Assembly: GCA_003559575.1 (NCBI GenBank)
Contig: PWKZ01000147.1
Location: 35,471-99,470 of the forward strand
Reading direction: 5' to 3'
From: Bradymonadales bacterium
Lineage (GTDB): Bacteria; Myxococcota_A; UBA9042; PWKZ01
Length of the DNA stretch: 64,000 nt
Every line of letters starts with the position of its first letter. Within the stretch, counting starts at the first letter, position 1. The position numbers and the translations under genes were made by a program. This document shows positions 1,979-17,861 of this stretch, piece after piece. The notes beneath the pieces are model-generated. The model was not told the origin of the DNA. It saw only the letters and a program-made list of their open reading frames with translations, and did not search any database.

Positions 1979-2821
1979 ATGAGCAAGCAGAAAGACACAT
2001 CGACGCTGCCCGTCCCACGCTCCTCGTTTGATCAATACCTCGAAGAGATCAATCGCTTCGAGCTTCTCACTCGCGAGGAGGAGGAGCGTCTGGCGCGGAC
2101 CTATCGCGACCACGGCGATCTCAAGGCCGCGCAGCGGCTCGTGACGGCCAACCTGCGTTTCGTAGTCAAGATGGCTTACGAGTATCGTCGCTACGACATC
2201 AAGCTCTCCGATTTGATCCAGGAGGGCAACATCGGGCTGATGCGCGCGGTCTCGAAGTTTGATCCCGATCGGGGCTATCGCCTGATCTCATACGCGGTGT
2301 GGTGGATCCGGGCGTACATGCAGGACTACATCATCCGCAACTGGAGCGTGGTGAAGATGCGCTCCGGAGGGCGTGGCCGCAGCCTCTTCTTTCGCGCTCA
2401 GCCATCTCAAGAGGAGAAACTGCTGCTGCCCGGGGCGTCGAAGCCGACGGAGGAGCCCGCCGCGAAGCCCGAGGTGCGGCGCGCGTTGCGTGACTTCTCG
2501 CTCGATGCGATGCAAGACGAGGACGGCAAGCGCAGCTTCCTAGACGCGATCCCTTCGCCGTCTCCCGCGCCCGACGAGGCGATGGGGCAGACCGAGGATC
2601 GGACGCTGGTGACCGAGACCTTGCGAGAAATGGACGGCTCCTTCAACCCCAAGGAGCGCTATATTTTGGCTCACCGGATGCTCGCCGACGAACCCGAGAC
2701 GCTGCAAGAGATAGGAGAGCGGTTCAGTATCTCCCGCGAGCGGGTGCGGCAAATCGAACAAGCCCTCAAGTCCAAAATTGAAAAGGGTCTGCGTCGCCAC
2801 GAGACTTTCGCCGGGCGCTAG
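1979..2821 (+). CDS. rpoH: RNA polymerase sigma-70 family factor, sigma-32 (RpoH)-like
   Basis: Region 2 (RLVTANLRFVVKMAYEYRRY, NIGLMRAVSKFDPDRGYRLISYAVWWIRAYM) and region 4 (ETLQEIGERFSISRERVRQIEQALKSKI) of sigma-70 family. GRGRSLFFRAQ resembles the RpoH box QRKLFFNLR. Confidence 0.65.
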   Translation: MSKQKDTSTLPVPRSSFDQYLEEINRFELLTREEEERLARTYRDHGDLKAAQRLVTANLRFVVKMAYEYRRYDIKLSDLIQEGNIGLMRAVSKFDPDRGYRLISYAVWWIRAYMQDYIIRNWSVVKMRSGGRGRSLFFRAQPSQEEKLLLPGASKPTEEPAAKPEVRRALRDFSLDAMQDEDGKRSFLDAIPSPSPAPDEAMGQTEDRTLVTETLREMDGSFNPKERYILAHRMLADEPETLQEIGERFSISRERVRQIEQALKSKIEKGLRRHETFAGR

Positions 2822-2960: not shown

Positions 2961-3953
2961 ATGGAGACCGGAGTCAAGGCGATTACGGAGATGGTCCGGC
3001 GCGAGAGCGCGTTCGTCGACCGAGTCCGGGAAGAGGTCGACAAAGTAATCGTTGGCCAGCAGGTGATGGTGGAGCGGCTGCTCATTGGGTTGCTCACCGG
3101 TGGGCATATTTTGCTCGAGGGGGTGCCGGGGCTGGCCAAAACCCTCACTGTCCGCACTGTCGCGGAGACCATGAACTCGCGCTTTCAGCGCATTCAGTTC
3201 ACGCCCGACCTGCTGCCGGCCGATCTCATCGGCACCATGATCTACAACCAGCACGACTCTTCGTTCTCGACCCGCAAGGGCCCGATCTTCGCCAACCTGG
3301 TGTTGGCCGACGAGATCAACCGCGCGCCGGCCAAGGTGCAAAGCGCGCTGCTCGAGGCCATGCAGGAGAAGCAGGTGACCATCGGCGAGAACACTCACAT
3401 TTTGGAGGAGCCGTTCCTGGTCATGGCGACCCAGAACCCGATCGAGCAAGAGGGCACCTACCCTCTGCCCGAAGCACAAGTGGATCGCTTCATGTTGAAA
3501 GTGCACGTGGGCTACCCCGGGCGCGAAGAGGAGCTAATCATCATGGAGCGCGCGACCGGGATAGAAAAGCTGCAGGCGGTCCGTCCGGTGATGACCTCGG
3601 CCGAGCTCTTGGCGGCGCGCGCGACGCTGCCGCACATAATTCTGGACGATAAGATCAAGCGCTATATCGTCGATCTCGTGTTCGCGACGCGAGAGCCGCA
3701 AGCCTACGGCCTGTCGCGCCTCGAGGGGCTCATCGGCTGGGGAGCCTCGCCACGCGCCAGCATCTACTTGAACCTGGCGGCGCGCGCCCACGCCTTCCTG
3801 CGGCACCACGGCTATGTGGACCCCGAAGACATCAAGAGTGTGGCCCTCGATGTGTTGCGCCACCGCGTGATCCCGACCTATGAGGCGGAAGCCGAGGAGT
3901 TGACCTCCGAGGATCTCGTCCAGCAAATCTTGGACAAGGTCGAGGTGCCGTGA
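2961..3953 (+). CDS. MoxR-family AAA+ ATPase (BatI-like)
   Basis: ATG at 2961 with AAAGGAGACC upstream. Walker A GVPGLAKT, Walker B LVLADEINRA, and sensor/arginine-finger region typical of MoxR (QNPIEQEGTYPLPEAQVDRF). Confidence 0.85.
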   Translation: METGVKAITEMVRRESAFVDRVREEVDKVIVGQQVMVERLLIGLLTGGHILLEGVPGLAKTLTVRTVAETMNSRFQRIQFTPDLLPADLIGTMIYNQHDSSFSTRKGPIFANLVLADEINRAPAKVQSALLEAMQEKQVTIGENTHILEEPFLVMATQNPIEQEGTYPLPEAQVDRFMLKVHVGYPGREEELIIMERATGIEKLQAVRPVMTSAELLAARATLPHIILDDKIKRYIVDLVFATREPQAYGLSRLEGLIGWGASPRASIYLNLAARAHAFLRHHGYVDPEDIKSVALDVLRHRVIPTYEAEAEELTSEDLVQQILDKVEVP

Positions 3954-5005
3954 TGCGGTCATCGCCTACCCCCACAAAGTGGGCGCCGAATCAAACGGCG
4001 GCGCCACGACGGACGGCACGCGAAGAGGTCGCTTTGCGACCGGTGAGCCGCGAGGTGCTACGGCGGATCCGCAAGATCGAGATCATCACGAACCGGCTCG
4101 TCAGCGATCAACTCGCCGGGCAGTACCAGAGTGTTTTCAAGGGGCGTGGGATGAGCTTCGACGAGGTGCGCCCTTATCAACCGGGGGATGAGATCCGCCA
4201 GATTGACTGGAACGTCTCGGCGCGCACCGGGGACATCTATGTCAAGCAGTTCGTCGAGGAGCGGGAGTTGACCATCCTGCTGGTGGTGGACGCCAGCGCC
4301 TCGCAGAGTTTCGGCACCCGTGAACAGACCAAGATCTCCGACGCCGCCTGGCTTTCGGCCCTTCTCGGGTTCTCGGCCATTCGCAACAATGACCGGGTGG
4401 GGCTAATCGCCTTCGTGGAGCAGGCCGAGGACACGCCGGAAGACGAGGCGCTGCTTTTCATTCCCCCCAAAAAAGGGCGTTCGCACTGCTTGCGGTTGGT
4501 GCGCGATGTGATGGCGGTCGAAGATTGGGCCGAGGCGCGGATAGCGGAGCGCCGTGAGCGCGCGAGGCCCGATGTGCAGACCCGCCTCGAGACCGCCCTT
4601 GGGTACTTGAACCGCGTCACCAGGCGGCGGGTGGTGGCGTTCTTGATCTCCGACTTCCGCGCCCACGGGTTCACCCAGGCGCTTGGGGTGACCTCCCAGC
4701 GTCACGACTTGATCCCCATCGTGACGAGCGATCCCGGAGAAGAGACACTCATCGGCGCCGGCCTGACCTTTTTCGAAGATCCCGAGACCGGCGAGCTTTT
4801 CCCGGGCTGGGTCGGCGGGCGCGCGCGGCGGCGTTTCGCCGCCGCTGAGGCGCGGCGACGCGCGGAGCTACAACAGACCTTCGCGCGCTACGGGATGGCG
4901 CCGATTGTCTTGCCGACGGGAGTGACGGAGGATCTGGAGAGCCGCGCTTCCCGTTACACGAAGGCGATTATCAACTATTTCCGCCTCCGGGCCAAACGGC
5001 AATGA
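3950..5005 (+). CDS. DUF58 family protein (MoxR partner, VWA-like fold)
   Basis: Start overlaps the moxR stop (ATGA). Motif DWNVSARTGDIYVKQFVEERELTILLVVDASASQSFG is characteristic of DUF58 proteins that follow MoxR ATPases. Confidence 0.8.
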   Translation: MMRSSPTPTKWAPNQTAAPRRTAREEVALRPVSREVLRRIRKIEIITNRLVSDQLAGQYQSVFKGRGMSFDEVRPYQPGDEIRQIDWNVSARTGDIYVKQFVEERELTILLVVDASASQSFGTREQTKISDAAWLSALLGFSAIRNNDRVGLIAFVEQAEDTPEDEALLFIPPKKGRSHCLRLVRDVMAVEDWAEARIAERRERARPDVQTRLETALGYLNRVTRRRVVAFLISDFRAHGFTQALGVTSQRHDLIPIVTSDPGEETLIGAGLTFFEDPETGELFPGWVGGRARRRFAAAEARRRAELQQTFARYGMAPIVLPTGVTEDLESRASRYTKAIINYFRLRAKRQ

Positions 5006-5027: not shown

Positions 5028-6614
5028 GTGGTCAGGCCATCTCGTCACAACGTCTGCTGCTTATGGGTGACGGCGCTCCTGCTGCTTCAAGCCGGCACCG
5101 GAGCGGGGCCGCTTTGGGCCTCCGACGTGTCCGACGCTCCCGAACGGCCGCAAGCAACGCTCCCCCGCGAGGAGTCGCCGCCGCGCTTCGAGCTCAACGT
5201 GGCGCCCGAGCAGATCGAGCTTGGCGCCGAGGTCCTCTATCGCGTGGTGTTCACGGCCCCCGAGGACTATCGTTTCTACTTCCCCTCGCCGCCGGCGCTT
5301 CAGCCGTTCGTGCTCGTCCCGGGCAGCCTGGTCACCCGCCGCGAGCCCGGAGAAGGCCCCGACCTGGGCCTCGTGAACACCGTAGTCGAGCTACGCCTCA
5401 GGAGCTACCGTCTCGGGGTGCGGTGGATCCCGGCCGTCGAGGTGGCCTTTTTGGGGCCCGAGGGGGAGACCGGCGTGGTGGATTTGCCGCGCCGGCGGGT
5501 CGAGGTAGTGGCCCGGGTGGCGGTGGACGATTTGCCGGCGCTGGCGAACCCGCCGCCGCCGCGCTCGGTCATCGCCACCAACTGGACGCTCGTCTGGGGG
5601 GCCGTCATCCTTGGCAGCGTGCTTGGCGCCGTGGTCCTGACTGTTCTGGCGCTATGGCTGTTTGGCGGCCGTCTGATGCGCCCGCCACCGCCGCCGCCGC
5701 CGCGCCCGCCCCACGAGACGGCGCTGATCAAGCTGGCCCAAATCGAGCGTGAGCGGCTGCCGGAGAGCGGCGCCTTGATGGACTACTATGTGCGGGTCAG
5801 CGAGGCGGTGCGTGAGTATCTCGGAGCGCGCTACCGCGTCGACGGCCTGATGATGACCACAGGCGAATTACTCCGGTCGCTCGAATCGGCCGATCTCAGA
5901 GGGGTCCCGCATAGCCGGGTGCGCGCTTTCTTGGAAGAGTGCGATCTGGTCAAGTTCGCCAACTTCGCACCGTCCCCCGAGGAGATCGAGTGGCTGCTCG
6001 CCACCGCCTATGGGTTGGTGCGCGACACGATGCAGGTCGTCACTCCCGAAGAGCAGGAGGCCGCGCGCCCGCAGGCGGCCGATCATCCCGCCCGCCCATC
6101 GGCGCGGGCCTTCGCGTGGTCGCTCGATCTGGCCTCGTTCGCATTGCCGGCCGGCGGCCTCCTGGTGCTCGGGCGGCTCATCGAGGCCGAATCGGTGTTT
6201 GTGGCCGCCGCCGTTCTGTTGGTGCTGCTTGGGCTGTTGCTGCGCGATTTGCCGTCGGCGGGGAGCCTCGGCAAGGCCATCACCGGCCTGCGCCTGGCCG
6301 GTTATCGGCCACCGGCCCAGGATCCCAAGACCCGGCGGCTGGTCCCCCAGGAGGGGAGGCTCCCCGGCGGCGGCGCCCGCGTCCGGCGTAACCTGGCACA
6401 GCTGGTCCCGTTCGTGGGTCAGGCGGTGGAGTTCGTGGTTTTGGCCCATGACCCCGACAGCCGACGACTGGGGGATCGCCTCGCCGGAACGGCGGTGCTG
6501 GATATTCGAGCGGTGGAGCGCAAGCGGGGGGGTGAGGTCGGCTTGTTGCTCGGCGCGATGGTGACGACTTTGTTGGCGTTGGCGGCGTTGGTAATGCCGC
6601 TCGTAGCGCTTTAG
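5028..6614 (+). CDS. Membrane protein: periplasmic domain + TM + poly-Pro linker + DUF4381-like region (KFANF) fused to C-terminal RDD-like domain
   Basis: Signal sequence LLLLQAGTGA; TM helix WTLVWGAVILGSVLGAVVLTVLALWLF followed by RPPPPPPPRPP. C-terminal hydrophobic segments with GKAITGLRLAG, resembling the RDD-family GKRxxGLRV motif. Located where DUF4381 sits in Bacteroides bat operons. Confidence 0.5.
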   Translation: MVRPSRHNVCCLWVTALLLLQAGTGAGPLWASDVSDAPERPQATLPREESPPRFELNVAPEQIELGAEVLYRVVFTAPEDYRFYFPSPPALQPFVLVPGSLVTRREPGEGPDLGLVNTVVELRLRSYRLGVRWIPAVEVAFLGPEGETGVVDLPRRRVEVVARVAVDDLPALANPPPPRSVIATNWTLVWGAVILGSVLGAVVLTVLALWLFGGRLMRPPPPPPPRPPHETALIKLAQIERERLPESGALMDYYVRVSEAVREYLGARYRVDGLMMTTGELLRSLESADLRGVPHSRVRAFLEECDLVKFANFAPSPEEIEWLLATAYGLVRDTMQVVTPEEQEAARPQAADHPARPSARAFAWSLDLASFALPAGGLLVLGRLIEAESVFVAAAVLLVLLGLLLRDLPSAGSLGKAITGLRLAGYRPPAQDPKTRRLVPQEGRLPGGGARVRRNLAQLVPFVGQAVEFVVLAHDPDSRRLGDRLAGTAVLDIRAVERKRGGEVGLLLGAMVTTLLALAALVMPLVAL

Positions 6615-6634: not shown

Positions 6635-7765
6635 ATGAGCTTCGCGAATCTGGAATTTTTGATTGTCGGCAGTGTCGCGACGCTTTTGGCCGCTTGGTAT
6701 GTCCTGCGGCGGCCGACCGCCGGCCTACGGGTGTCGGATGGATCCGCGGTTCGTCACGTCGCGCGCGCCGGCCGCGCGCGTTTCTGGCGTTTGCCGGATC
6801 TGTTGAGGCTGGCGGCGCTCGCGCTCCTCGTGGTCGCGCTGGCCCGTCCCCAGAGCGACTCGCTGACGGAGCTCACCGGCGAGGGCGCCGACATCATGAT
6901 CGCGCTCGACATGTCAGGTTCGATGAACGCCGTCGACATGAGCATGGAGGAGTTGGCTCTGTTGCAGGCGCGCGGGCAGGACCCGATGAATCGCTTTGAG
7001 GTGGCGCGCGATATCTTGAAGCAATTCATCGCCGGCCGCCGGGGGGATCGGATAGGCCTCATCATCTTCGGGCCGGAAGTGTATTTGAAGTTTCCGCTGA
7101 CACTGGACTACCGAATGATTGTGGCGCAGCTCGACTCGCTTGTGCTCGACAATGGGATTCGCACTTCCGATGGGGAGTGCACCAACCAATGCACCATCAG
7201 CGGCGCGGGGACGGCGCTCGGCGATGCCCTGGCGCGCGCCTATCGGCGGCTCAGGCACTCCGAGGCGGCGACCCGCGCGATTGTGCTCATCACGGACGGC
7301 GAGCGCGAGGGCGGTAAGCTCTGCCCGCGCATGGTCGCGACCTACATGGCCGACCAAGCGGATCAGGAGCAGATGCGGGTCTACACATTCCTGGTGGGGT
7401 CCCCCACCGCCATGACCACCCTCGTACCGCGCTACATCCGCCAAGTCGACCGGAGGCGCGGGGGGTATGATCTGGTGGTGGCCCGCGACGAGCGTGGGCG
7501 AGTGATCTATGAGCGCTCGCCGGAGCCGTTTGCCACCGATCCGCAGCTCATGCAAGAGATCGCGCGCCTGACCGGCGGGGAGTACTTCGAGGCCTTTGAT
7601 GAGCGCCAGTTTCGCGAGCAGTTCGAGGTGCTCGCCGGGACCGAGTTTCGCACCACCACTCGGACCCGTAAGCGGGATTTGTTCTTGCCGTGGCTGCTGG
7701 TGGGGCTTGGAGTGCTACTGCTCGAGTGGTGGCTGCGGGTCGGGCCGCTTCGAAAATTTCCGTGA
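6635..7765 (+). CDS. batA: BatA-like von Willebrand factor A domain membrane protein
   Basis: N-terminal TM pair, then VWA/MIDAS motif IMIALDMSGSM ... RIGLIIFG ... LITDGE. Same operon order as known bat clusters. Confidence 0.8.
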   Translation: MSFANLEFLIVGSVATLLAAWYVLRRPTAGLRVSDGSAVRHVARAGRARFWRLPDLLRLAALALLVVALARPQSDSLTELTGEGADIMIALDMSGSMNAVDMSMEELALLQARGQDPMNRFEVARDILKQFIAGRRGDRIGLIIFGPEVYLKFPLTLDYRMIVAQLDSLVLDNGIRTSDGECTNQCTISGAGTALGDALARAYRRLRHSEAATRAIVLITDGEREGGKLCPRMVATYMADQADQEQMRVYTFLVGSPTAMTTLVPRYIRQVDRRRGGYDLVVARDERGRVIYERSPEPFATDPQLMQEIARLTGGEYFEAFDERQFREQFEVLAGTEFRTTTRTRKRDLFLPWLLVGLGVLLLEWWLRVGPLRKFP

Positions 7766-7782: not shown

Positions 7783-10700
7783 ATGAACTGGTCTGAACTC
7801 ACTTGGCAAAATGGTCACTTGTGGTGGGTCGTGCCTGTCGGGGTGGGGGTCGTCGCGCTCGGCTTCCTGCTCGTTTTTCTCTGGCGACAGAGGATGCTCG
7901 AACGGATCGCCGACCCGGCCCTCCGCGAACGTTTGGTGGAGACCTTGAGCCGCCCCCGGCAGGTGCTCAAGGCGGTCATCATGACCGTCGCCGTGGCGTT
8001 GCTGCTGCTCGCGGCGCTCCGGCCCCAGTACGGGGTGCGCGAGACCGAGGTGAGAAACGTCGGGATCGACATCGCCGTGTTGCTCGACGCCAGCCAGAGT
8101 ATGCTGGTGCGGGATGTGGTGCCCGACAGGTTCGTGGCCGCCCGGCAGGAGATAAGCCGGGTGCTCGAGGGCTTGAGTGGTGGCCGGGTGGCGCTCATTC
8201 CATTTTATTTCATCCCCTTCGTGCAGTCTCCGCTCACCTCCGACTTTGACGCGTTGCAGGTCTACTTGCGTGATCTGAGGCTCGATGACATCGCCGAACC
8301 CGAGATGCGCGGGACAAGTATCGGCCGCGCGCTGATGGCCGCCGTAGGGTTGTTGGCCCAGGATCGGGAGTTGCTCTCCGAGGCCGGGGCGGGCGTCGTC
8401 CCGGATTTGGACGAGGACCACGACGTGAGCGCGATGGACGGCAGCCGCTACAAGGCGATTCTGCTATTCACCGACGGCGAGGAGCACGAGGATCTCCCCG
8501 AGGAAATCTACACGGTGGCGGAGTCCGCCGGTATCCGGATCTTCTCCGTCGGGGTCGGGACACGGGCCGGTCACGCGGTGCCCATCGTGCAAGAGGACGG
8601 CGAGGTGACCGGAGTGCTCAAAGGCGAGGATGGCCACCCAATCTTCTCGGCGCTCAACGAGGAGCTGCTGGGCGGGCTGGCCGAGCGCACCGGCGGCGCC
8701 TATTTCAACTTCTCGGGCCGCTCGGTGGCCGACGAGCTTTTGGCCGAGATCGAGAAGCTCGAAAAGAAGGAGTTCGAAGCTCAGACCCGCGATCTTGGAG
8801 AGGATCGCTACCAATTCCTGTTGCTTCCGGCGCTGATACTGCTGATGGTCGAGGGGCTCATGTCTGATCGCTTGCGGCGCAGGAGAGCCACCGATGACAA
8901 GCGGCGGCAGGGAAAGCGCGGGAGACGCCGCCTTGGCGCGCTGGTTATGGCGCTGGTGCTGCTTGCCGGTCCCCAGGCCGTCGCCTGGGATCTCTTCAAG
9001 ACCCGGCAGAGCGACGTCGAGGCCGGGAACGCTCTGCTTCGGTCCGGGAGCCCACGCGAGGCGCTCGAGGCTTATGAGCGGGCGCGGGAGGTCTTGCCCG
9101 AACAGGCCGAGTTGCACTACGCCATTGGGGTCGCGCGGCACGAACTCGGAGAATATGACATGGCGGTGCGGGCACTTGAGCGGGCGCTCGAGCGGCTCCC
9201 GGATCTCGGTGTCGCCGAGGAGACGCGCGAGCTAAGGTTCGCCGTGCTGTTTGCCCTCGGGACGACCTATGCCGCATGGGGCGAACGAGCCGAGGCGCGG
9301 GCTCTAGGGCGGGCTGCCCCCGAAGAAGAGGAGGGACCGGAGCCGCGGCAGGACGCCCGGACCAAGGCCATCGAGCGGTTCGAGCGAGCGGTTCATTTCC
9401 TCGAGCGCGCCCTGAGATTCGAGCCGGGTCACGAGGGGGCGCTCCTCAACCTCGAGCTTGCCCTGCTGCGGGTGGATCCGCCATGTCATCTTCGCAACGA
9501 TGAATACGCCCCCAACGACACGTTCGACTCCGCGGCGGCGCTCGAGGTGGAAGATCTGCAAGAGGAGCAAATGTTTCCGCTCGTGCTGTGTCCCGGGGAG
9601 GACGACTGGTTCACGTTCGAGACCGAGCCCGGGGACCGGATTTTCGCCTCCGTCAAGACCGATAACCGCGCCGCCGAGCTCCGCGTCGCGCTCTATGCGC
9701 CGGACGGCGTCAGGGTGCGCCCTCCTGCCGGCAGTGAGAGAACGATCTCGGAGCTGAGCTATCAGGAGGGGGCGCTCGCGGGGCCGGTGAGGCTGCACGT
9801 CTTTGATCCGACCGAGGAGGAGAGCGACTATCGCTTGAAACTCCGAGTCCTGCCGGCCTGCGAGCGGCTGGACGATTCGTTCGAGCCCAACGACAGCTTC
9901 GAGGAGGCGCGGCTGGTGACCGACGAAGATCGGGAGAGGCTCGCGGCGCTCAGGTTGTGCCCCGGGAACGACGACTGGTTCAAGATCGATGTGCCCGACG
10001 AGTGGAGCTTGATGGTCATCGGTGAGTTCGACATCAAGCAGGGCCTCCCCGAGCTTGCGATCTTCGACGAGCAGCAAAATGAACTCATGCGGCGCTCGTT
10101 TTCGAGTGAGGAAGCGCAGGTTGATGACAGCGCGCCTTTGATGTTGAGCTTGCTCGAACCTCCTCCCGGTCGCTACCGCTTGAAGGTGACCGGCACCCTG
10201 GACGTCGAGGCGGCCTATGGGTTGACTCTCCAGGTGGTCCCCCCTTGTCCGGAGGGGGACGATCACATGGAGCCCAACGACGAGTTCGGGGAGGCCAAGC
10301 CGTTTCCCGAGGGGGAGCCGATGTTGCTCCGCCGGTGCCCCGACAACGACGACTGGTTCGAGGTGATGGCGAGCGGCGACGAGCGACGCGTGGTGACCGC
10401 CCTGTTCGATCACGAGAGCGGCGATTTGGCGCTCGAGCTCTACGATTCCAAGCAGCAACTCGTGGGCGAGAGCGATCAGAGCAGCGCTCAAATGGGCGGT
10501 GAGGCGCTCGTGTTACCCGAGGTGCCCGAGGAGGATGAGGTGCCGTATTATGTGCGAGTCACCTCGCACGTGAACGAGAGCAACTTCTATCTGCTCGAAT
10601 TGCGCGCTCCGGACGCCGATCCGGACGCGCCTGATGACGAGCGGGACGAACAAGACGAACAGGACGAGCGGGACGAACAGGACCGGCAAGACGAACGGGA

Positions 10701-10875
10701 CGAGCGGGACGAACAGGACCGGCAGGACGAACGGGACGAGCGGGACGAACAGGACGAGTTGGATGCGATGCGAGAGGAGATGGAGAAGCTCGATCGCAAC
10801 CCACGGAATCTCGAAGCGGAGCGGGCGCGACGCACCTCGCCGCTTGGCAATGCACGCCCGACAAAGCCGTGGTAG
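7783..10875 (+). CDS. batB: BatB-like VWA protein fused to TPR (BatC-like) region, three PPC-like beta-sandwich domains and an acidic (DERDEQ)n repeat tail
   Basis: N-terminal TMs and VWA MIDAS (IAVLLDASQSM, LFTDGEEHED). TPR helices around aa 400-500. Three ~110-aa repeats each starting (Y/F/M)xPND(S/T/E)F and containing CPGxDDWF, as in pre-peptidase C-terminal (PPC) domains. C-terminal DERDEQDEQDERDEQDRQDER... repeats. Confidence 0.75.
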   Translation: MNWSELTWQNGHLWWVVPVGVGVVALGFLLVFLWRQRMLERIADPALRERLVETLSRPRQVLKAVIMTVAVALLLLAALRPQYGVRETEVRNVGIDIAVLLDASQSMLVRDVVPDRFVAARQEISRVLEGLSGGRVALIPFYFIPFVQSPLTSDFDALQVYLRDLRLDDIAEPEMRGTSIGRALMAAVGLLAQDRELLSEAGAGVVPDLDEDHDVSAMDGSRYKAILLFTDGEEHEDLPEEIYTVAESAGIRIFSVGVGTRAGHAVPIVQEDGEVTGVLKGEDGHPIFSALNEELLGGLAERTGGAYFNFSGRSVADELLAEIEKLEKKEFEAQTRDLGEDRYQFLLLPALILLMVEGLMSDRLRRRRATDDKRRQGKRGRRRLGALVMALVLLAGPQAVAWDLFKTRQSDVEAGNALLRSGSPREALEAYERAREVLPEQAELHYAIGVARHELGEYDMAVRALERALERLPDLGVAEETRELRFAVLFALGTTYAAWGERAEARALGRAAPEEEEGPEPRQDARTKAIERFERAVHFLERALRFEPGHEGALLNLELALLRVDPPCHLRNDEYAPNDTFDSAAALEVEDLQEEQMFPLVLCPGEDDWFTFETEPGDRIFASVKTDNRAAELRVALYAPDGVRVRPPAGSERTISELSYQEGALAGPVRLHVFDPTEEESDYRLKLRVLPACERLDDSFEPNDSFEEARLVTDEDRERLAALRLCPGNDDWFKIDVPDEWSLMVIGEFDIKQGLPELAIFDEQQNELMRRSFSSEEAQVDDSAPLMLSLLEPPPGRYRLKVTGTLDVEAAYGLTLQVVPPCPEGDDHMEPNDEFGEAKPFPEGEPMLLRRCPDNDDWFEVMASGDERRVVTALFDHESGDLALELYDSKQQLVGESDQSSAQMGGEALVLPEVPEEDEVPYYVRVTSHVNESNFYLLELRAPDADPDAPDDERDEQDEQDERDEQDRQDERDERDEQDRQDERDERDEQDELDAMREEMEKLDRNPRNLEAERARRTSPLGNARPTKPW
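10636..10758 (+). repeat. Tandem ~36-bp (GACGAGCGGGACGAACAGGACCGGCAGGACGAACGG-like) coding repeat, about 3.5 units
   Basis: Direct tandem repetition visible in the sequence. It encodes the acidic DERDEQDRQDER tail of the BatB-like protein and also generates spurious minus-strand ORFs (10513..10881, 10559..10891). Confidence 0.8.
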
Positions 10876-10917: not shown

Positions 10918-12699
10918 TTGATGAGAGGGCGGGTTGCCATAGCAGTCGGAGTCGTTGTGCTGTCGGTCTTCGTGGCCCGGTCGGCGCCGGCACAGGAGGT
11001 CGAGCTGTCGGTCGACCGGCGGGTGCTCTCCATGGACGAGGACCTACAGGTCGAGGTGCGCGCCACGGGCGCCTTCGATGAGCTGGTGCAGCCGGAGACC
11101 CCGGGCTTTGAGGTGGGAGGCACCTCGCGCTCCTCCGAGATCTCGATGGGGCCTTCCGGCACCGTCCAGTCGCATGTCCTCCGTTTGACTCTGGTCCCGA
11201 CCTCCCCCGGCCGCCATCGCCTGGGCCCGGCGAGTGTTCGCAGTGGAGGCCGGGAGGTGGCGCGCTCCGAGCCCGTCTTCGTGACCGTCAAGGACGTACC
11301 GCAGGTGACGGTGTCGCCGGAGCAGGCCGGCGAGCTTGAATCGCGGGCCGGCGAGCGCTATTTCCTGGTGCCGGTGTTTCCTGAGCGCCCGCTCTATGTG
11401 GGTGAACCGTTCGTGCTCAGTTACAAGCTTTATACGCGCGCCGACTCGCCGGTGACGAATGCCTCCTGGCGCGAGGTGCCGGAGCTTGCCGCCTTTTCGG
11501 TTGAGAACCTGCTCCGCTCGCAACGGCGGCGCTCACAGCGGCGCACCATCGGGCGTTATACCTATAACGTCTCCTTGCAGCTCCAGTATCTAGCGGTGCC
11601 GCTCTCGGCCGAGTCGGGCAGGGTGGAGGGAGCGGTTTTGGACGTTGTCGCCGGCGATTTTTTTCAGCGCCGGCGCTACACAGTGCGGGCGCCTTCGTTC
11701 GAACTGGACATAAGGCCGCTGCCGGCCGAGGGTCGACCACCAGAGTTTCAATCAGGCAACATCGGCCGCTTTGAACTCGAGACCGACTTGCACCCGACGA
11801 CGGTCGGCGCCGGGGAACGCGCGGTGTTGACTCTGCGAGTCACCGGCCGGGGCGCGTTGGAGAGCGTGCGGCCGCCCCGATTGCCGGAGGCGCTCGGCGC
11901 CGAGCTTCTGCCCACCGGCGATGGCGATCGGATTGAGAGGAGCGCGGCGGGGGTCGAGGGGACCCGCGTCTTCCGCTATGTTCTCGTGCCGCATGAGCCG
12001 GGCAAGCTCACGATCCCGCCAATCCGTCTGGCTTACTTCGACCCCGAGCGAGCGCGCTATCGCGTGGTGACGAGCGCGCCGATGGATCTCGAGGTCACCG
12101 GGGAGGCACCGCCGACGCGCGCGGCGGCCCTCACGGCCGAAGTCGACGAGGAGTCATTCCTTCTCGGGCTCAGGGACATTCGCGCCGAGAGCGATCTCAC
12201 CTCGCGCCGTCCTCCGGTGCGGCCCCACCGCGCGTGGTGGTTCTGGACGCTTCTGGCAGTCCCGGCGGCGCTCCTCCTGGCGGTGGAATTCGTCGTTTGG
12301 TTGAAGCGATACAAGGCGCGCACGGAGCCCCGGCGCCGGATGCGTCGCGCCGCGGCCGTTTTCCGGCGCGCCCTCAAGGCGGCGCGACGAAAGCTCCGCG
12401 CCGGCGACTCGCGCGCTTTCTTTGAGATCATCGGGACAGCGCTCAGGGAGTTTTGTTACAACCGCTTCGGACTCTCGGTGCGAGGACTGACGCACGGCCA
12501 GCTCCGTCGCCGGTTGGTCGAACTCGGCGCCGATCCGGAGTTCGCCGAGGCGGTGGTGGCGGAGCTCGAGAACACCGACTTCGCGCGCTATGCGCCCGTG
12601 AACATGCGCGATGACGAGATGCGCGGCTCCCTGGAGCGCTCGTGGCGGCTGGTGGCGTCGCTCAACCGGTTGCCGAGGAGGGCCGACGGCGATGAATAG
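10918..12699 (+). CDS. batD: BatD-like protein
   Basis: Signal peptide MMRGRVAIAVGVVVLSVFVARSAPAQ, large periplasmic region, C-terminal TM (WWFWTLLAVPAALLLAVEFVVWL) then basic cytoplasmic tail: the BatD architecture. Lies in the operon position of BatD. Confidence 0.65.
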   Translation: MMRGRVAIAVGVVVLSVFVARSAPAQEVELSVDRRVLSMDEDLQVEVRATGAFDELVQPETPGFEVGGTSRSSEISMGPSGTVQSHVLRLTLVPTSPGRHRLGPASVRSGGREVARSEPVFVTVKDVPQVTVSPEQAGELESRAGERYFLVPVFPERPLYVGEPFVLSYKLYTRADSPVTNASWREVPELAAFSVENLLRSQRRRSQRRTIGRYTYNVSLQLQYLAVPLSAESGRVEGAVLDVVAGDFFQRRRYTVRAPSFELDIRPLPAEGRPPEFQSGNIGRFELETDLHPTTVGAGERAVLTLRVTGRGALESVRPPRLPEALGAELLPTGDGDRIERSAAGVEGTRVFRYVLVPHEPGKLTIPPIRLAYFDPERARYRVVTSAPMDLEVTGEAPPTRAAALTAEVDEESFLLGLRDIRAESDLTSRRPPVRPHRAWWFWTLLAVPAALLLAVEFVVWLKRYKARTEPRRRMRRAAAVFRRALKAARRKLRAGDSRAFFEIIGTALREFCYNRFGLSVRGLTHGQLRRRLVELGADPEFAEAVVAELENTDFARYAPVNMRDDEMRGSLERSWRLVASLNRLPRRADGDE

Positions 12700-13504
12700 C
12701 CCCAAGAGAACTCTGCGCGTGACGTCCGGTGTCCTGTCTCTGCTTCTGCTCGTGCTGAGCGCGCTCCCGGCGGGGGCGGCCACCCTGCAAGAGCAGTTCA
12801 ATCGCGCCAACCAGCACTACTGGGATGGTGAGTACGAGGCCGCGCAGGAGCTCTACCAAGATCTGGCGGAGCGCTATCGGATCGAGAACCCCGAGCTGTA
12901 CCACAACCTCGCCAACAGTTACGCAAAGACCGGACAGCTCGGCGTGGCGGTGCTGTATTACAACCGCGCTCTGGCGGCGTCGCCCGGTCCCGAGACCAGA
13001 GTGGCGGCCACGGCCAACCTGGAGCGCACCCGCGCCGCTCTTGCCGCCGCCCACCAGAAGCACATCAGGCCACAGCGGGCGTTGTTCGCCGAGGGCCACG
13101 GGGTCTTCTACGCGCTCTTTCAGTTGCTCTCCGAGCCCACTCTCGCGGTGATCTTCCTGGCGCTCTTTTTCTCTCTGGTGGCGGTGCTGCTGCTGCGCCA
13201 CCTGCCTGCCTACGGTCTCAAGCGCGCCACCAAGCCGCTCGCCCTGACCTTGCTATTCCTTCTGCTCATCACCGGAGGGTGGCTGGCCGGCAACATCGCC
13301 ACTACCGAGAGCGTGCGGTCGGGGATCGTCCTCGTGGCGGACACCCCGCTCCGGGCCACGCGATTGCCCCACTCACCGCGCGTAACCTTGCCCGAGGGGC
13401 TGGAGGTGGCCATCTCGGGCGAGCCGGACGACGGCTTGTTGCGAGTGCGCCTCGCCGGCGGTCGCGAGGGGTTCGTCCCCGCGGAGAACATCGGTGAGAT
13501 CTAA
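12692..13504 (+). CDS. BatE-like TPR + SH3b-like domain protein
   Basis: ATG at 12692 overlaps the batD stop. Signal peptide and TPR (NPELYHNLANSYAKTGQLGVAVLYYNRALAASPG); central TM segments; C-terminal SH3b-like GLLRVRLAGGREGFVPAENI. Confidence 0.6.
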   Translation: MNSPKRTLRVTSGVLSLLLLVLSALPAGAATLQEQFNRANQHYWDGEYEAAQELYQDLAERYRIENPELYHNLANSYAKTGQLGVAVLYYNRALAASPGPETRVAATANLERTRAALAAAHQKHIRPQRALFAEGHGVFYALFQLLSEPTLAVIFLALFFSLVAVLLLRHLPAYGLKRATKPLALTLLFLLLITGGWLAGNIATTESVRSGIVLVADTPLRATRLPHSPRVTLPEGLEVAISGEPDDGLLRVRLAGGREGFVPAENIGEI

Positions 13505-14569: not shown

Positions 14570-15976
14570 CTAGAGTTTCAGGAAACGACCCATCTTCATC
14601 CCGAGCTTCATCATCCCGCGGCGTGTCAGGAGGTGCCGCGCGACATAGCCCAGGCGGCGAGGGTGGCCGTAAAATGCCGCCAGCGCTCCGAGCTGAATCG
14701 CGCGCAGTGTGCCCGCTCCGATGAGACTCGCTCGATCACTGAAGTTGCGCGCGTTGTAATAGTCGATGCCGGTGTTGGCGTCGTTGCAGAGGGCGAAGCG
14801 GTTGTCGGCGCTCATTTGAGTGGCGATGTGTGTTCCGGGGAGGACGGACGTCAGGGAGAACGTCGCCTCCGTCAGATCCAGCCGCGTGGCGAGCTTGACG
14901 GTCGCCAACATCTCTCTGAGATCCTCGGTCGGTGAGCCGAGCATGAAAAACCCCAGCGCATGGGCGCCGCGATGTCGCAGGTGCGCGAGCAGCGACTCGA
15001 GCCGGTCCAGATCGACTCGTTTGTGGAGCACTTCCTCCCGAATTCGACGGCTCCCGGCCTCGATCCCCAGATGGATGCTTCGCATTCCGCTCGCGACCAT
15101 TGCGTCGACGAGCTCATGGTCGAGGCAATCGACACGCGAGTTGCAGCCCCATAGAATCGGCCGCCGCATTTGCAGCAGCGCTTCGCATAGCTCCAAGAGC
15201 CAGCGCCGCCGCGTCGTCAGGGTGTCGTCGTGAAAGAAAATCCCGCGGACACCGTAGCGCTGTTGGAGAGCTTCCACCTCGGCGACGATGCTCGCGGGGC
15301 TGCGGCGTCTTGGGCCGCGCCCGAAGAGCGAGTCCAGTGTCGGTTGGCAGTAGGCACATTGTTCGGCGCAGCCACGGGACGCGACTATATTGGTCCCCAC
15401 GGTGGCGACGTCCAGGGTGTCCAAATAAGGCCAGCGGTGGAGGTAGCGCTCCATTGGGAGGAGATCCCAGGCGGGGAATGGGAGCGCGTCGAGGTCCGGC
15501 GGCCGGTACGGCGCGCACGATCTCTTCGGGGGGCCGCCGGCGCTCTCGCGCCACACGACGTTCGGCACGTCCCCAAAGGGCGCGCGCGCGATGGCGCGGT
15601 CGACCACGTCGGCGATGATGGGCTCGCCCTCCCCAAGGACTATGGCGTCGAAGGCGGGCAGCAGTGTTTCGGCGGCCACCGTGGCGTGGGGGCCTCCGGC
15701 CACCACCGAGGCGCCGCCCTCGCGCGCCGCTTCCGCCACCCGTGACGCGACTAACGGCATCAGCGAGTCCACATAGACTCCGACGACATCGCCGCGGGCG
15801 GCCCGTACGGCTTGAAGCAGCTTCTTTTCACCGCCGAGGAAGGTGCCGTCCACGATCCGGATGTCGAGCGCGGGCCGCGCCTTGCGCAGCGCCGCGGCGA
15901 GGTAGGCGACGCCGAGCGGCGGATCGCCGGTGCGATAGGTTGAGCGGGGGAAAACCAATACGACTCGATGGGCCAT
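14570..15976 (-). CDS. B12-binding domain radical SAM enzyme (class B rSAM)
   Basis: Start MAHRVVLVFP (ATG on minus strand at 15974-15976). The ORF track's 724-aa call includes about 256 codons of non-coding-looking leader. Cobalamin-binding-type N-terminal domain, then CxxxCxxC cluster motif ASRGCAEQCAYC and a TIM-barrel-like core. Confidence 0.8.
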   Translation of the reverse strand: MAHRVVLVFPRSTYRTGDPPLGVAYLAAALRKARPALDIRIVDGTFLGGEKKLLQAVRAARGDVVGVYVDSLMPLVASRVAEAAREGGASVVAGGPHATVAAETLLPAFDAIVLGEGEPIIADVVDRAIARAPFGDVPNVVWRESAGGPPKRSCAPYRPPDLDALPFPAWDLLPMERYLHRWPYLDTLDVATVGTNIVASRGCAEQCAYCQPTLDSLFGRGPRRRSPASIVAEVEALQQRYGVRGIFFHDDTLTTRRRWLLELCEALLQMRRPILWGCNSRVDCLDHELVDAMVASGMRSIHLGIEAGSRRIREEVLHKRVDLDRLESLLAHLRHRGAHALGFFMLGSPTEDLREMLATVKLATRLDLTEATFSLTSVLPGTHIATQMSADNRFALCNDANTGIDYYNARNFSDRASLIGAGTLRAIQLGALAAFYGHPRRLGYVARHLLTRRGMMKLGMKMGRFLKL

Positions 15977-16086
15977 TGAGCCTCTCTGGACGGCGGCCTT
16001 AAGGGGGTACCGCGACCCCGACGTGCGCGCCTGAGCGCGAAGGTAGCAAACGGGCCAAGTGCGCACAATGCCTTGATCATATAATC

Positions 16087-16237
16087 CATAATCGTCGGTT
16101 CGTTCTGAGGAGACCCGCCAAGTGGAGGCGCGTGCATGTGCACGGAAACAAGCCGTTCTCAGGCGCAGTCCAACGCAGAGCCTACGTCGAGCACTAATTA
16201 TTCTGCAGGTGACGCCGCAGATGGGCCGACGATTATG
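16087..16237. repeat. Copy 1 of a ~150-175 nt repeated intergenic element with perfect 12-bp terminal inverted repeats (CATAATCGTCGG...CCGACGATTATG); candidate structured sRNA or MITE
   Basis: Second copy at 61178..61352 in the same orientation. Shared blocks: TTCGTTCTGAGGA, GTGGAGGCGCGTGCATGTGCA(C/A)GGAAACAAG, CTACGTCGAGCACTAATT, GCAGGTGACGCCGCAGATG. The central block is variable. Contains the hairpin CGTGC-ATGT-GCACG. Lies in the divergent promoter region of the two radical SAM genes. Confidence 0.6.
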
Positions 16238-16373
16238 ACCTTGAGCCGCTGGGCGGGGGGGTGGTAGGGTGAAAACGGGTGGTTGCCCCTGGTGTGGTGC
16301 GTTTCGGGCTCGAGCCGCTCTCGTGCCGGGGGAGCGCTTTTTTGCGAGCTTTCCCGGTGGTGGAAGCGCCGTT

Positions 16374-17861
16374 ATGGCTCCAGTCAAAGGCTCCGGTCTT
16401 CGAGTCCTCTTTGTCAACGGACTGCTGGGCGGTGATTTTAGTGCGCTGGACATCGGCGTCACCGTGCTCGCCTCATGGCTGAACCAGAAAACCCGCCATC
16501 GGGCGGCCATCGCCGATCTCGTCTTCCATTCCAGGCATTGGCAGCGGCATCTGCATCGCGAGATTGAACGCAAGCGACCCGACGTGATCGCGCTCTCGTG
16601 CAACACGATGTACATGAAGTACGTCCGGCGTATCGTCGCCGAGGTGCGGCGACGGCATACGCTCCCGATCGTTTTGGGGGGGCACCACGCGAGCATCGAG
16701 CCGGCCGAGGTTTTTGCGCTCCCCGGTGTCGACGCGGTCGTCATCGGCGACGGAGAGCTGCCGCTCCAAGGCTACCTGGATCGGTTGAGTGAAGGCGGCA
16801 ACTTCGAGGGCGTCCCCGGGCTGTGGGTCCGTGAGCGCGGCCCCCTTGGGCGCGAGGTGCGCAATGAAGGCGGCGCCTTCCTCGAGGACATCGATCAGCT
16901 CCCCTATCTCGAGTGGGATCTCTGGGACGACCTCGATCGCTATTTTTATTTTTTGGGGATGATTTACGCGCAGGGCAGCCGCGGGTGCCCCTACCGCTGC
17001 ACGTTCTGCGACGCTCAGGGCTACGCGCGGGCGCTGCGGGGCACCGGCAGCTACTTCCGTCTGCGCGATCCCGAGGCGTTCGTCGCCGAACTCGAGCATT
17101 ACTATCACCGCTATCACCATAGGGGCGCCCGGCTGTTCCAGCTCTTCGATCCCGTCTTCACGATGGACGACGACTGGCTCACTCGTTTCTCCGCCGAGTA
17201 CCGCCGGCGCGGGCTCCATGAGCGGATGCGCTACTCGGCCTTCTCGCGGATCGACCATCTCTCCGAGGAGAAAGTCGCGCTGCTTGCCCGCTCCGGTTGC
17301 GCGCTATTGCGGGTCGGTATCGAGGCGGGCGACGATCACATTCGCATGGAGGTCTACAAAAAGAAGATCGGCAGCGCGACGATTCGGCGGATCTTTGCCG
17401 CTGCCAAACGTCAGGGGCTGGACTTCACAGCGTTTTTTATTTTCGGAGGGCCACAGGAGACGCACACGTCATTCTTCAAGACCACGCGGCTGGCGTGGGA
17501 GCTGGACGCCGCGCGCTCGGGGTTCTTCGTCTACAAGCCGTTCACCGCCGAAGGGCGCGCCCAGATCGAGGCCGCCGGCGGCGGTATCGACTCGGTGCGC
17601 TACGCGGCCGCCGACAATATCGCCTGGGGTGGCGCGACCTCTGGGAAAGGCTGGGGGCCCCGGTCTCTCGAAGCCTGGCAGCTCGCGGCCTACGGGCTGA
17701 CTTTTGGGCGCCGGTGGGTGCGCATGATTCGCCGCCGTGGGCTGCCCGCGTACACGACGGCGCTGGCGCGTTACATGGCGCGCGGCCTCCGGCTGGGCTT
17801 GGACTGGCGCTATATGGCCATGTACTTCCACATCTACGAGGGCGACAACGTCGATCAGTGA
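16374..17861 (+). CDS. B12-binding domain radical SAM enzyme (class B rSAM), paralogue of 14570..15976
   Basis: ATG at 16374 with GGTGGAAG upstream; MAPVKGSGLRVLFVNG begins the B12-binding domain; CxxxCxxC motif GSRGCPYRCTFCD. The ORF track's N-terminal extension from 16269 is probably not translated. Confidence 0.8.
   Translation: MAPVKGSGLRVLFVNGLLGGDFSALDIGVTVLASWLNQKTRHRAAIADLVFHSRHWQRHLHREIERKRPDVIALSCNTMYMKYVRRIVAEVRRRHTLPIVLGGHHASIEPAEVFALPGVDAVVIGDGELPLQGYLDRLSEGGNFEGVPGLWVRERGPLGREVRNEGGAFLEDIDQLPYLEWDLWDDLDRYFYFLGMIYAQGSRGCPYRCTFCDAQGYARALRGTGSYFRLRDPEAFVAELEHYYHRYHHRGARLFQLFDPVFTMDDDWLTRFSAEYRRRGLHERMRYSAFSRIDHLSEEKVALLARSGCALLRVGIEAGDDHIRMEVYKKKIGSATIRRIFAAAKRQGLDFTAFFIFGGPQETHTSFFKTTRLAWELDAARSGFFVYKPFTAEGRAQIEAAGGGIDSVRYAAADNIAWGGATSGKGWGPRSLEAWQLAAYGLTFGRRWVRMIRRRGLPAYTTALARYMARGLRLGLDWRYMAMYFHIYEGDNVDQ

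Follow-up and report, generated by a model that had tools for sequence, protein, structure and literature searches.

A 64,000-nt stretch of contig PWKZ01000147.1 from a Bradymonadales bacterium (the window, meaning this stretch at its full length) contains a 1030-codon open reading frame (ORF) that seems to join two proteins of the Bat system, BatB and BatC, and to carry three repeats resembling pre-peptidase C-terminal (PPC) domains. Is this ORF a real gene, what are its repeats, and what might such a protein do in the cell envelope? We found that 7783..10875 is a real gene in which BatB and BatC are fused, that it stands within a complete Bat operon of the MoxR type, and that its BatC half belongs to a widespread subfamily into which two to five domains of the PPC/clostridial collagen-binding domain (CBD) fold, three in this case, have been inserted.

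A genuine BatB–BatC fusion gene in a complete Bat operon

The ORF lies on the forward strand, starts with ATG and is preceded a few bases upstream by an AAGGA Shine-Dalgarno-like motif; the coordinates and the length of 1030 aa are exactly those of the first-pass annotation, which had been made from the sequence and its ORFs. The single ORF is uninterrupted across its BatB (VWA) and BatC (TPR) parts and is reproduced between assemblies. An identical protein is encoded on a 112-kb NCBI contig (P0161), and three variants, again of 1030 aa each, carry 1–2 residue differences (P0009, P0159 and P0160). In all, four alleles are present on five NCBI/ENA contigs with the same length and an identical junction, and a protein of only 70% identity (P0011) is fused across the same junction. 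The reproducible 1030-aa alleles and the fused P0011 therefore exclude an assembly join, which the first-pass annotation had named as a possible source of the fusion. In the JGI metagenomes, a 40-nt junction probe gave 0 matches, and a protein-based scan returned distant fragments only.

The fusion is the fifth gene of a co-directional operon encoding MoxR, DUF58, a membrane protein, BatA, the fusion, BatD and BatE. MoxR (AAA_3) and then DUF58 head the operon; there are two membrane-anchored VWA proteins, BatA and BatB, with the MIDAS motif DASQS (metal ion-dependent adhesion site) at residue 102 of the fusion; and the TPR protein BatC stands between BatB and BatD, after which come BatD itself and a TPR-containing BatE (SH3, E 0.093). 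The Bat context proposed earlier was confirmed by Pfam and NCBIfam, which recognized MoxR, DUF58, BatA, VWA plus TPR, BatD and a TPR protein. In gene content and order the window matches the Bat or MoxR-MRP operon (MoxR–DUF58–BatA–BatB–BatC–BatD–BatE), in which likewise BatA and BatB are membrane-anchored VWA proteins, BatC and BatE contain TPRs and BatD has a domain of its own. Unlike the canonical operon, BatB and BatC form one ORF, BatC has three PPC-like domains and a long charged spacer, and a 528-aa membrane protein is added.

The BatB half, the junction and the TPR region comprise the following features.

7825..8019 (+), BatB N-terminal hairpin: transmembrane segment 1 (TM1, residues 15–33), an Arg-rich loop and TM2 (residues 61–79); hydropathy peaks 2.54 and 2.65
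8068..8787 (+), VWA of the BatB part, residues 96–335; Pfam VWA/VWA_2; MIDAS DASQS at residues 102–106 (DxSxS)
8809..8865 (+), TM3, residues 343–361, the usual C-terminal BatB anchor; from hydropathy
8866..8988 (+), fusion junction: basic loop, residues 362–383 (12 R/K), and TM4, residues 384–402 (LGALVMALVLLAGPQAVA then W)
8989..9474 (+), BatC-type TPR region, residues 403–564; Pfam TPR_1, TPR_2 and TPR_16; NCBIfam TPR_BatC_Lepto, E 2.4e-8; alignment with BatC of locus L001

The Pfam VWA/VWA_2 match covers residues 96–261 with an intact MIDAS, Pfam TPR families match residues 413–484, and the NCBIfam models for Leptospira BatB, BatA and BatC match the fusion protein below their cut-offs. The two halves were delimited by comparison with L001, a related metagenomic locus found via the protein P0002, which agrees with the window in gene order and in its flanking genes (sigma-70 and radical-SAM). 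In L001, BatB (363 aa) and BatC (641 aa) are encoded by separate genes overlapping by ATGA. Residues 1–366 of the window protein are 44% identical to this separate BatB, which ends 5 residues past the helix equivalent to TM3, and residues 403–1030 are 32% identical to the separate BatC. According to these alignments, residues 1–366 are BatB and residues 403–1030 are BatC, and the 36 residues between them are extra and in frame relative to L001.

A fusion of this kind is not without precedent. The first-pass annotation treated BatB and BatC as separate proteins in characterised operons, but PMC3557215 reports a BatB–BatC fusion for Leptospira biflexa and bat genes with fused coding regions for Borrelia burgdorferi, Spirochaeta thermophila and Francisella tularensis Schu S4. 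Like the window gene, the published fusions consist of one ORF with VWA followed by TPR; they have no PPC domains, and the window protein is 300–400 aa longer.

Three repeats of the PPC superfamily

The region between the TPRs and the charged spacer consists of three repeats, whose boundaries were obtained from a profile hidden Markov model (HMM) built on the three internal repeats.

9475..9849 (+), PPC/CBD-like repeat 1, residues 565–689; Cys568/Cys603; APND and EDDWF motifs
9850..10236 (+), PPC/CBD-like repeat 2, residues 690–818; Cys693/Cys726; EPND and NDDWF motifs
10237..10608 (+), PPC/CBD-like repeat 3, residues 819–942; Cys822/Cys852; EPND and NDDWF motifs; the repeat chosen for modelling

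Both xPND and CPxxDDWF are present in each of them. The number of repeats and the xPND signature agree with the first-pass annotation, whereas their length is about 125 aa each according to the HMM and not about 110 aa.

The repeats had been assigned to the PPC family, with PF04151 as the model to check against. This check failed: PF04151 matched neither the whole protein nor its C-terminal half nor the three isolated repeats, even at E<=10. The relative P0002 reached E 0.033 only, and phmmer with the C-terminal region found nothing among PDB sequences. The assignment was instead obtained through homologues. A phmmer search with residues 565–943 retrieved P0004–P0008 at E 3e-25 to 5e-16, and each of these proteins matches PF04151 (E 3e-11 to 4e-23). 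A profile of 29 repeats (alignment A2) matched the clostridial collagenase domains ColG s3a-s3b (5iku; E 8e-11), the ColH CBD (3jqw; 3e-6) and ColG s3b (1nqd; 2.5e-5) as well as the C-terminal domain of Tk-SP subtilisin (2e-4). By fold comparison, the modelled repeat has the PPC/CBD beta-sandwich fold. Homologues, profile search and fold comparison together place the repeats in the PPC superfamily; the earlier identification holds by transitive homology, the 29-repeat profile and the fold, and not by a direct PF04151 match. The overall architecture of VWA, TPR, three PPC-type beta-sandwiches and an acidic repeat was likewise borne out.

In an HMM-guided alignment, the EPND and D-x-D-W-F columns of the repeats coincide with E-(P/N)-N-(D/N) and D-x-D-Y-(F/Y) of ColG/ColH. 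In the clostridial domains, these positions make up a dual Ca2+ site built from the N-terminal linker and the D-x-D-aromatic loop. Binding by the ColG CBD requires Ca2+ (PMC6168687). The window protein contains only six Cys, one pair per repeat (568/603, 693/726 and 822/852), and exactly two Cys occur in 183 of the 187 Bat-type repeats of the family. Judging from these motifs, each repeat is probably a rigid beta-sandwich with two Ca2+ ions (at EPND and DxDW) and one disulfide. Repeat 3 is 38–42% identical to repeat 3 of the relatives but only 27–30% identical to repeats 1 and 2 of the window protein, and the triplication is therefore old.

PPC domains of the clostridial collagenases accompany a peptidase, whereas the window protein has none: Pfam and NCBIfam detected no peptidase domain in the protein or in the scanned operon genes. 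Its PPC-like domains are internal, lying between the TPR region and the conserved tail, and are not a C-terminal peptidase appendage removed on maturation.

A PPC block inserted into BatC in a widespread family

Searched exhaustively with phmmer, 1.84 billion cluster representatives gave 20,212 matches; the best 150 were sorted into classes by means of the repeat HMM, with clusters defined at 50% identity. The counts of clusters below are those among the best 150 of the 20,212 matches.

BatB–BatC fusion with 2–4 PPC-like repeats and the tail: at least 47 clusters, 828–1305 aa
BatC as a separate protein with PPC-like repeats (mostly 3–5): at least 18 clusters
BatB–BatC fusion without PPC: at least 15 clusters, 590–740 aa
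Giant proteins outside Bat, with 6–55 of these repeats: at least 36 clusters, up to 6725 aa

BatB–BatC fusions thus total 62 clusters, 47 with PPC and 15 without, and the layout of the window protein is not singular, being shared by at least 47 clusters at 50% identity. All 15 PPC-less fusions end in DW, most of them in KDW, and one (P0107) has an acidic stretch past the TPR followed by the same kind of tail. As the PPC-less fusions keep a DW tail, and P0107 an acidic stretch as well, the PPC block is an insertion that separates the TPR region of BatC from the spacer and tail. It lies within BatC, occurs also in unfused BatC proteins, and is not the extension of BatB that the first-pass annotation had described.

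The unfused BatC-PPC lipoproteins of Myxococcota metagenome-assembled genomes (MAGs), such as P0002 in L001 and P0017, are 32–49% identical to the window protein and share its TPR region, three repeats, spacer, tail, operon and flanking genes; they differ in being encoded apart from BatB, with a signal peptide of the lipoprotein or AxA type at the N-terminus. Among the GTDB species genomes, one narrow search pattern confirmed at least 25 loci, of which 4 of 25 are fused and most are unfused. Their labels are nearly all Myxococcota, Myxococcales or Deltaproteobacteria MAGs, plus one Oligoflexales. No literature combining 'pre-peptidase C-terminal' with 'aerotolerance' was found among the papers searched. 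The PPC-bearing BatC layout is common in uncultured Myxococcota and undescribed in those papers, while the BatB–BatC fusion as such has been published.

The metagenomic giants (P0010 of 6725 aa, P0023, P0041 and 33 others) consist nearly entirely of tandem PPC-like repeats, mostly with two Cys per repeat and without Bat domains.

A signal-peptide-like segment at the junction

Hydropathy analysis identified four membrane segments, at residues 15–33, 61–79, 343–361 and 384–402. Arg-rich loops join segment 1 to segment 2 and segment 3 to segment 4, the latter loop with 12 R/K in 22 residues. Applied to these loops, the positive-inside rule strongly predicts a periplasmic location for the VWA domain and for all residues past 402. 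In BB0173, a BatA-like protein, the VWA domain was found experimentally in the periplasm (PMC5700661). The pattern of two Cys per repeat fits disulfides in an oxidising compartment and gives independent support for the periplasmic location. The four segments, the Arg-rich loops and the Cys pairs agree with the extracytoplasmic C-terminal part assumed at first pass.

The fourth segment resembles a signal peptide. The junction, RRR–LGALVMALVLL–AGPQAVA followed by WDLF, is built like a type I signal peptide, with n-, h- and c-regions and Ala at −3/−1. In unfused relatives, the N-terminus is a signal peptide in which AxA precedes W (P0017 and P0032) or one of the lipoprotein type (P0001–3 and many others). 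Among the fused relatives, 30 of 48 carry a lipobox Cys after the hydrophobic stretch at the end of TM4, and several more do so by eye. Since these motifs are retained across clusters sharing less than 50% identity, the conservation suggests that the TM4 segment still functions as a signal peptide. Whether TM4 is actually cut by signal peptidase I, which would yield a membrane-bound BatB and a soluble periplasmic BatC with its three PPC-like domains, we put at about even odds from the motif. In most fused relatives (P0022 and P0040–P0146), the internal fourth TM helix has the lipobox form [LVI]xGC, where the window has AxA.

The strongest competitor to cleavage, with a probability that we place somewhat below one half, is that the fusion stays intact and TM4 serves as an uncleaved fourth anchor between two periplasmic lobes, the VWA domain and the TPR–PPC–tail region. 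No sequence feature forces cleavage, the lipobox is present in only 1 of the 15 PPC-less fusions, and the published BatB–BatC fusions have been handled as single proteins (PMC3557215). Set against this are the textbook layout of TM4, with a basic n-region, an 11-residue h-region, Gly-Pro helix breakers and AVA before W, and the lipobox Cys kept at exactly this place in 30 of 48 divergent fused relatives, a retention not easily accounted for unless processing or lipidation is under selection.

Cleavage at an internal signal peptide is said to have a precedent in the FbcH cytochrome b/c1 polyprotein of Bradyrhizobium japonicum, which, reportedly from work of Thöny-Meyer et al. in 1991, is cut there after export. 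As in the maturation proposed here, a membrane protein is fused to a periplasmic protein via an internal signal peptide. The FbcH proteins are unrelated to BatB–BatC, and for the window protein the cleavage is a prediction only.

A charged spacer and a conserved C-terminal tail

Past the third repeat, the protein continues with two further segments.

10609..10761 (+), charged low-complexity spacer, residues 943–993; 60% D/E over the 50 residues measured, net charge −22
10762..10872 (+), conserved BatC C-terminal segment, residues 994–1030, ending in KPW; from family conservation and a helix in the AlphaFold2 (AF2) model

Tandem Repeats Finder detected one array at 10636..10758 with periods of 9, 18 and 36; at the 36-bp period it has 3.3 copies, 91% matches and a score of 184. 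The array encodes residues 952–992 (DERDEQ DEQDER DEQDRQ DERDER ...), and both the 36-bp tandem repeat and the (DERDEQ)-like residues are as annotated before. Contrary to the first-pass annotation, the protein does not end there: 37 further conserved residues follow. This segment ends in ...LDRNPRNLEAERARRTSPLGNARPTKPW, is conserved across the family, and has no covering family model in NCBIfam. The tail motif '...NLEA..A.R.SP......K[DP]W' is common to the PPC-containing classes.

A charged spacer separates the last repeat from the tail in 67 of the 67 family members examined. Its length ranges from 22 to 261 aa (median 67), the median D+E fraction is 0.32, and the sequence is often periodic, for example (KQDQQ)n or (DKKDQ)n. 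The net charge is negative in 55 members and positive, with Lys-rich sequences, in 12; the window spacer is the most acidic among those of typical length. As the sign of the charge is not conserved, the segment is better understood as a hydrophilic spacer than as a specific binder of cations, and the idea that it stores cations throughout the family was rejected in view of the 12/67 net-positive, Lys-rich spacers.

The AF2 model shows one long helix over residues 955–1004, in which the spacer is continuous with the tail. A balanced ER/K single alpha-helix was also considered as a description of the spacer and rejected, given 30 acidic versus 8 basic residues (net −22). At the DNA level, the coding strand of the array is highly purine-rich. 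With a folding-energy z-score of +3.3, the array folds less stably than shuffled controls and has no hairpin potential.

The first-pass annotation expected length polymorphism in this array, and one could suppose further that it is a contingency locus whose copy number changes frequently and thereby tunes the protein. A 36-bp tandem repeat with 91% matches would suit such a locus, as would the family-wide spread of spacer length from 22 to 261 aa with many periodic sequences. We nevertheless consider it improbable: the four alleles, which have 1–2 residue differences elsewhere, are identical in sequence and length of the repeat, and the repeat copies differ from one another at 9% of positions, so that slippage is reduced. 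The change in spacer length is an evolutionary feature seen across species, not a demonstrated feature of populations.

Collagen-contact residues and the remaining alternatives

The collagen-contact aromatics of ColG are presumably Y970, Y994 and Y996. The columns of Y994 and Y996 hold F/T/T and P/T/H in repeats 1–3 of the window protein; with these tyrosines replaced, there is no reason to expect collagen binding. Compared with the CBDs of clostridial collagenases (ColG s3a/s3b and ColH s3; PPC superfamily PF04151), the window repeats lack the collagen-contact tyrosines, have an added conserved Cys pair each, are placed in the periplasm of a didermic bacterium and do not score with PF04151. 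That the repeats are functional binders of collagen or matrix, and the protein a surface adhesin for eukaryotic or prey material, is accordingly very improbable in our estimate, even though the closest structural and profile matches are clostridial collagen-binding domains and Myxococcota are predators. Besides the changed binding face, the domains sit between the TPR region and the conserved Bat tail, and the context is that of the inner membrane and periplasm, with no secretion signal besides Sec.

The least credible alternative, to which we give practically no weight, is that an assembly or sequencing artefact merged batB and batC genes that are in fact separate: where the two overlap by 4 bp, as in L001, one wrong base could in principle do so, but the four alleles on five contigs share one junction, the 70%-identical P0011 is fused too, the junction consists of 36 extra in-frame codons and not of a shifted overlap, and 47 further clusters are fused.

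A possible periplasmic arm of the Bat complex

MoxR ATPases and their VWA partners act as assembly or remodelling chaperones. In the mechanism that we propose, TM1 and TM2 would put the VWA domain with its MIDAS in the periplasm, and TM3 would bring the chain back to the cytoplasm, where the very basic loop follows. TM4 would re-export the chain, so that the TPR region, the three PPC-like domains, the spacer and the tail come to lie in the periplasm. The three repeats (about 375 residues) and the charged spacer may then form an elongated stalk holding the conserved C-terminal helix, which ends in KPW, away from the inner membrane and towards a docking partner; candidates are BatD, BatE or a component of the cell wall or outer membrane. 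With the TPR region as a platform and the MIDAS-bearing VWA domain at the membrane, the window protein could act in the periplasm as a scaffold or reach arm for the Bat complex of the envelope, whose assembly or remodelling MoxR with DUF58 might drive from the cytoplasm.

We regard this account as a whole, comprising the real fusion, the topology, the stalk of repeats, the scaffold role and possible cleavage, as fairly probable. Several points weigh against it. PF04151 does not recognize the repeats directly, and the Ca2+ binding and the disulfides are deduced from motif conservation only. A long helix through the acidic repeat, as predicted, is doubtful at a net charge of −22, and the signal-peptide motifs at the junction could reflect recent or repeated fusion events. 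In addition, bat mutants of L. biflexa had no oxidative-stress phenotype (PMC3557215), and the Bat phenotypes reported differ between species (PMC11834572, PMC3557215).

A bolder version, which we find possible though rather unlikely, is that the Myxococcota BatB–BatC-PPC proteins are polyprotein precursors. The cut, made once the protein is inserted in the membrane, would release a BatC stalk, stiffened by Ca2+ and disulfides, that bridges the Bat/MoxR complex of the inner membrane to the wall or outer membrane. Equally tentatively, the signal would be a type I signal peptide in the window and of the lipoprotein type in about two thirds of the relatives, and the ratio of BatB to BatC would be fixed at 1:1.

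Bat operons are widespread (Bacteroidota, Spirochaetes, Francisella and Myxococcota) and affect stress resistance and virulence in several pathogens. PPC sandwiches with Ca2+ sites, disulfides and a charged spacer argue for BatC as an extended periplasmic arm, and PPC or collagen-binding-type domains are seen here in a non-protease, periplasmic context. Routine processing at an internal lipobox, if true, would be unusual; through the stalk, the Bat system would acquire an envelope-spanning architecture that can be tested, and the signal-peptide motifs kept at the junction across the family are a simple biochemical handle. The practical impact is modest, as the host is an uncultured Myxococcota-like bacterium without an attached phenotype.

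Operon genes and neighbourhood

The operon and the gene directly upstream of it are arranged as follows.

1979..2821 (+), sigma-70 family gene, directly 5′ of the operon; Pfam Sigma70_r2, r4 and r1_2; synteny with L001
2853..3953 (+), MoxR-type AAA+ ATPase, first operon gene; Pfam AAA_3 (E 2.5e-66), AAA_lid_2 and bpMoxR
3950..5005 (+), DUF58 protein; Pfam DUF58, E 9.5e-61
5028..6614 (+), 528-aa conserved membrane protein; 33% identity to L001:6827-7798, E 7e-24
6635..7765 (+), BatA; Pfam BatA N-terminal domain, VWA_2 and VWA; NCBIfam VWA_BatA_Lepto, E 1.8e-32
7783..10875 (+), BatB–BatC fusion, 1030 aa; P0161 identical in public assemblies
10918..12699 (+), BatD; Pfam BatD, E 1.6e-28
12611..13504 (+), BatE-like protein; signal/TM segment, TPR (Pfam TPR_2, E 5e-8), TM segment and weak SH3_2 (E 0.093)

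Two start codons may differ from those listed. The true start of MoxR is probably the ATG at 2961. As listed, the BatE-like ORF shares 89 nt with the end of batD; the internal ATG at 12692, located before the signal-peptide-like segment and leaving an 8-nt overlap, is the more likely start.

The 528-aa membrane protein (5028..6614) has no Pfam or NCBIfam match. Its N-terminal part of about 320 aa is orthologous to a 323-aa gene at the same position in L001, and the additional C-terminal part of about 200 aa, with several hydrophobic segments, is a module of no known kind.

Scans of the whole window revealed no tRNA gene, no Rfam family at gathering score, and promoter and terminator counts no higher than background. 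Its G+C content is 64.8%. The sigma-70 family gene immediately 5′ of moxR is also kept in the distantly related L001, and this sigma factor (1979..2821) may be part of the regulation of the operon. Downstream, a radical-SAM gene on the opposite strand (14570..16744, −) is likewise found in L001, and the window copy has a B12-binding domain in addition.

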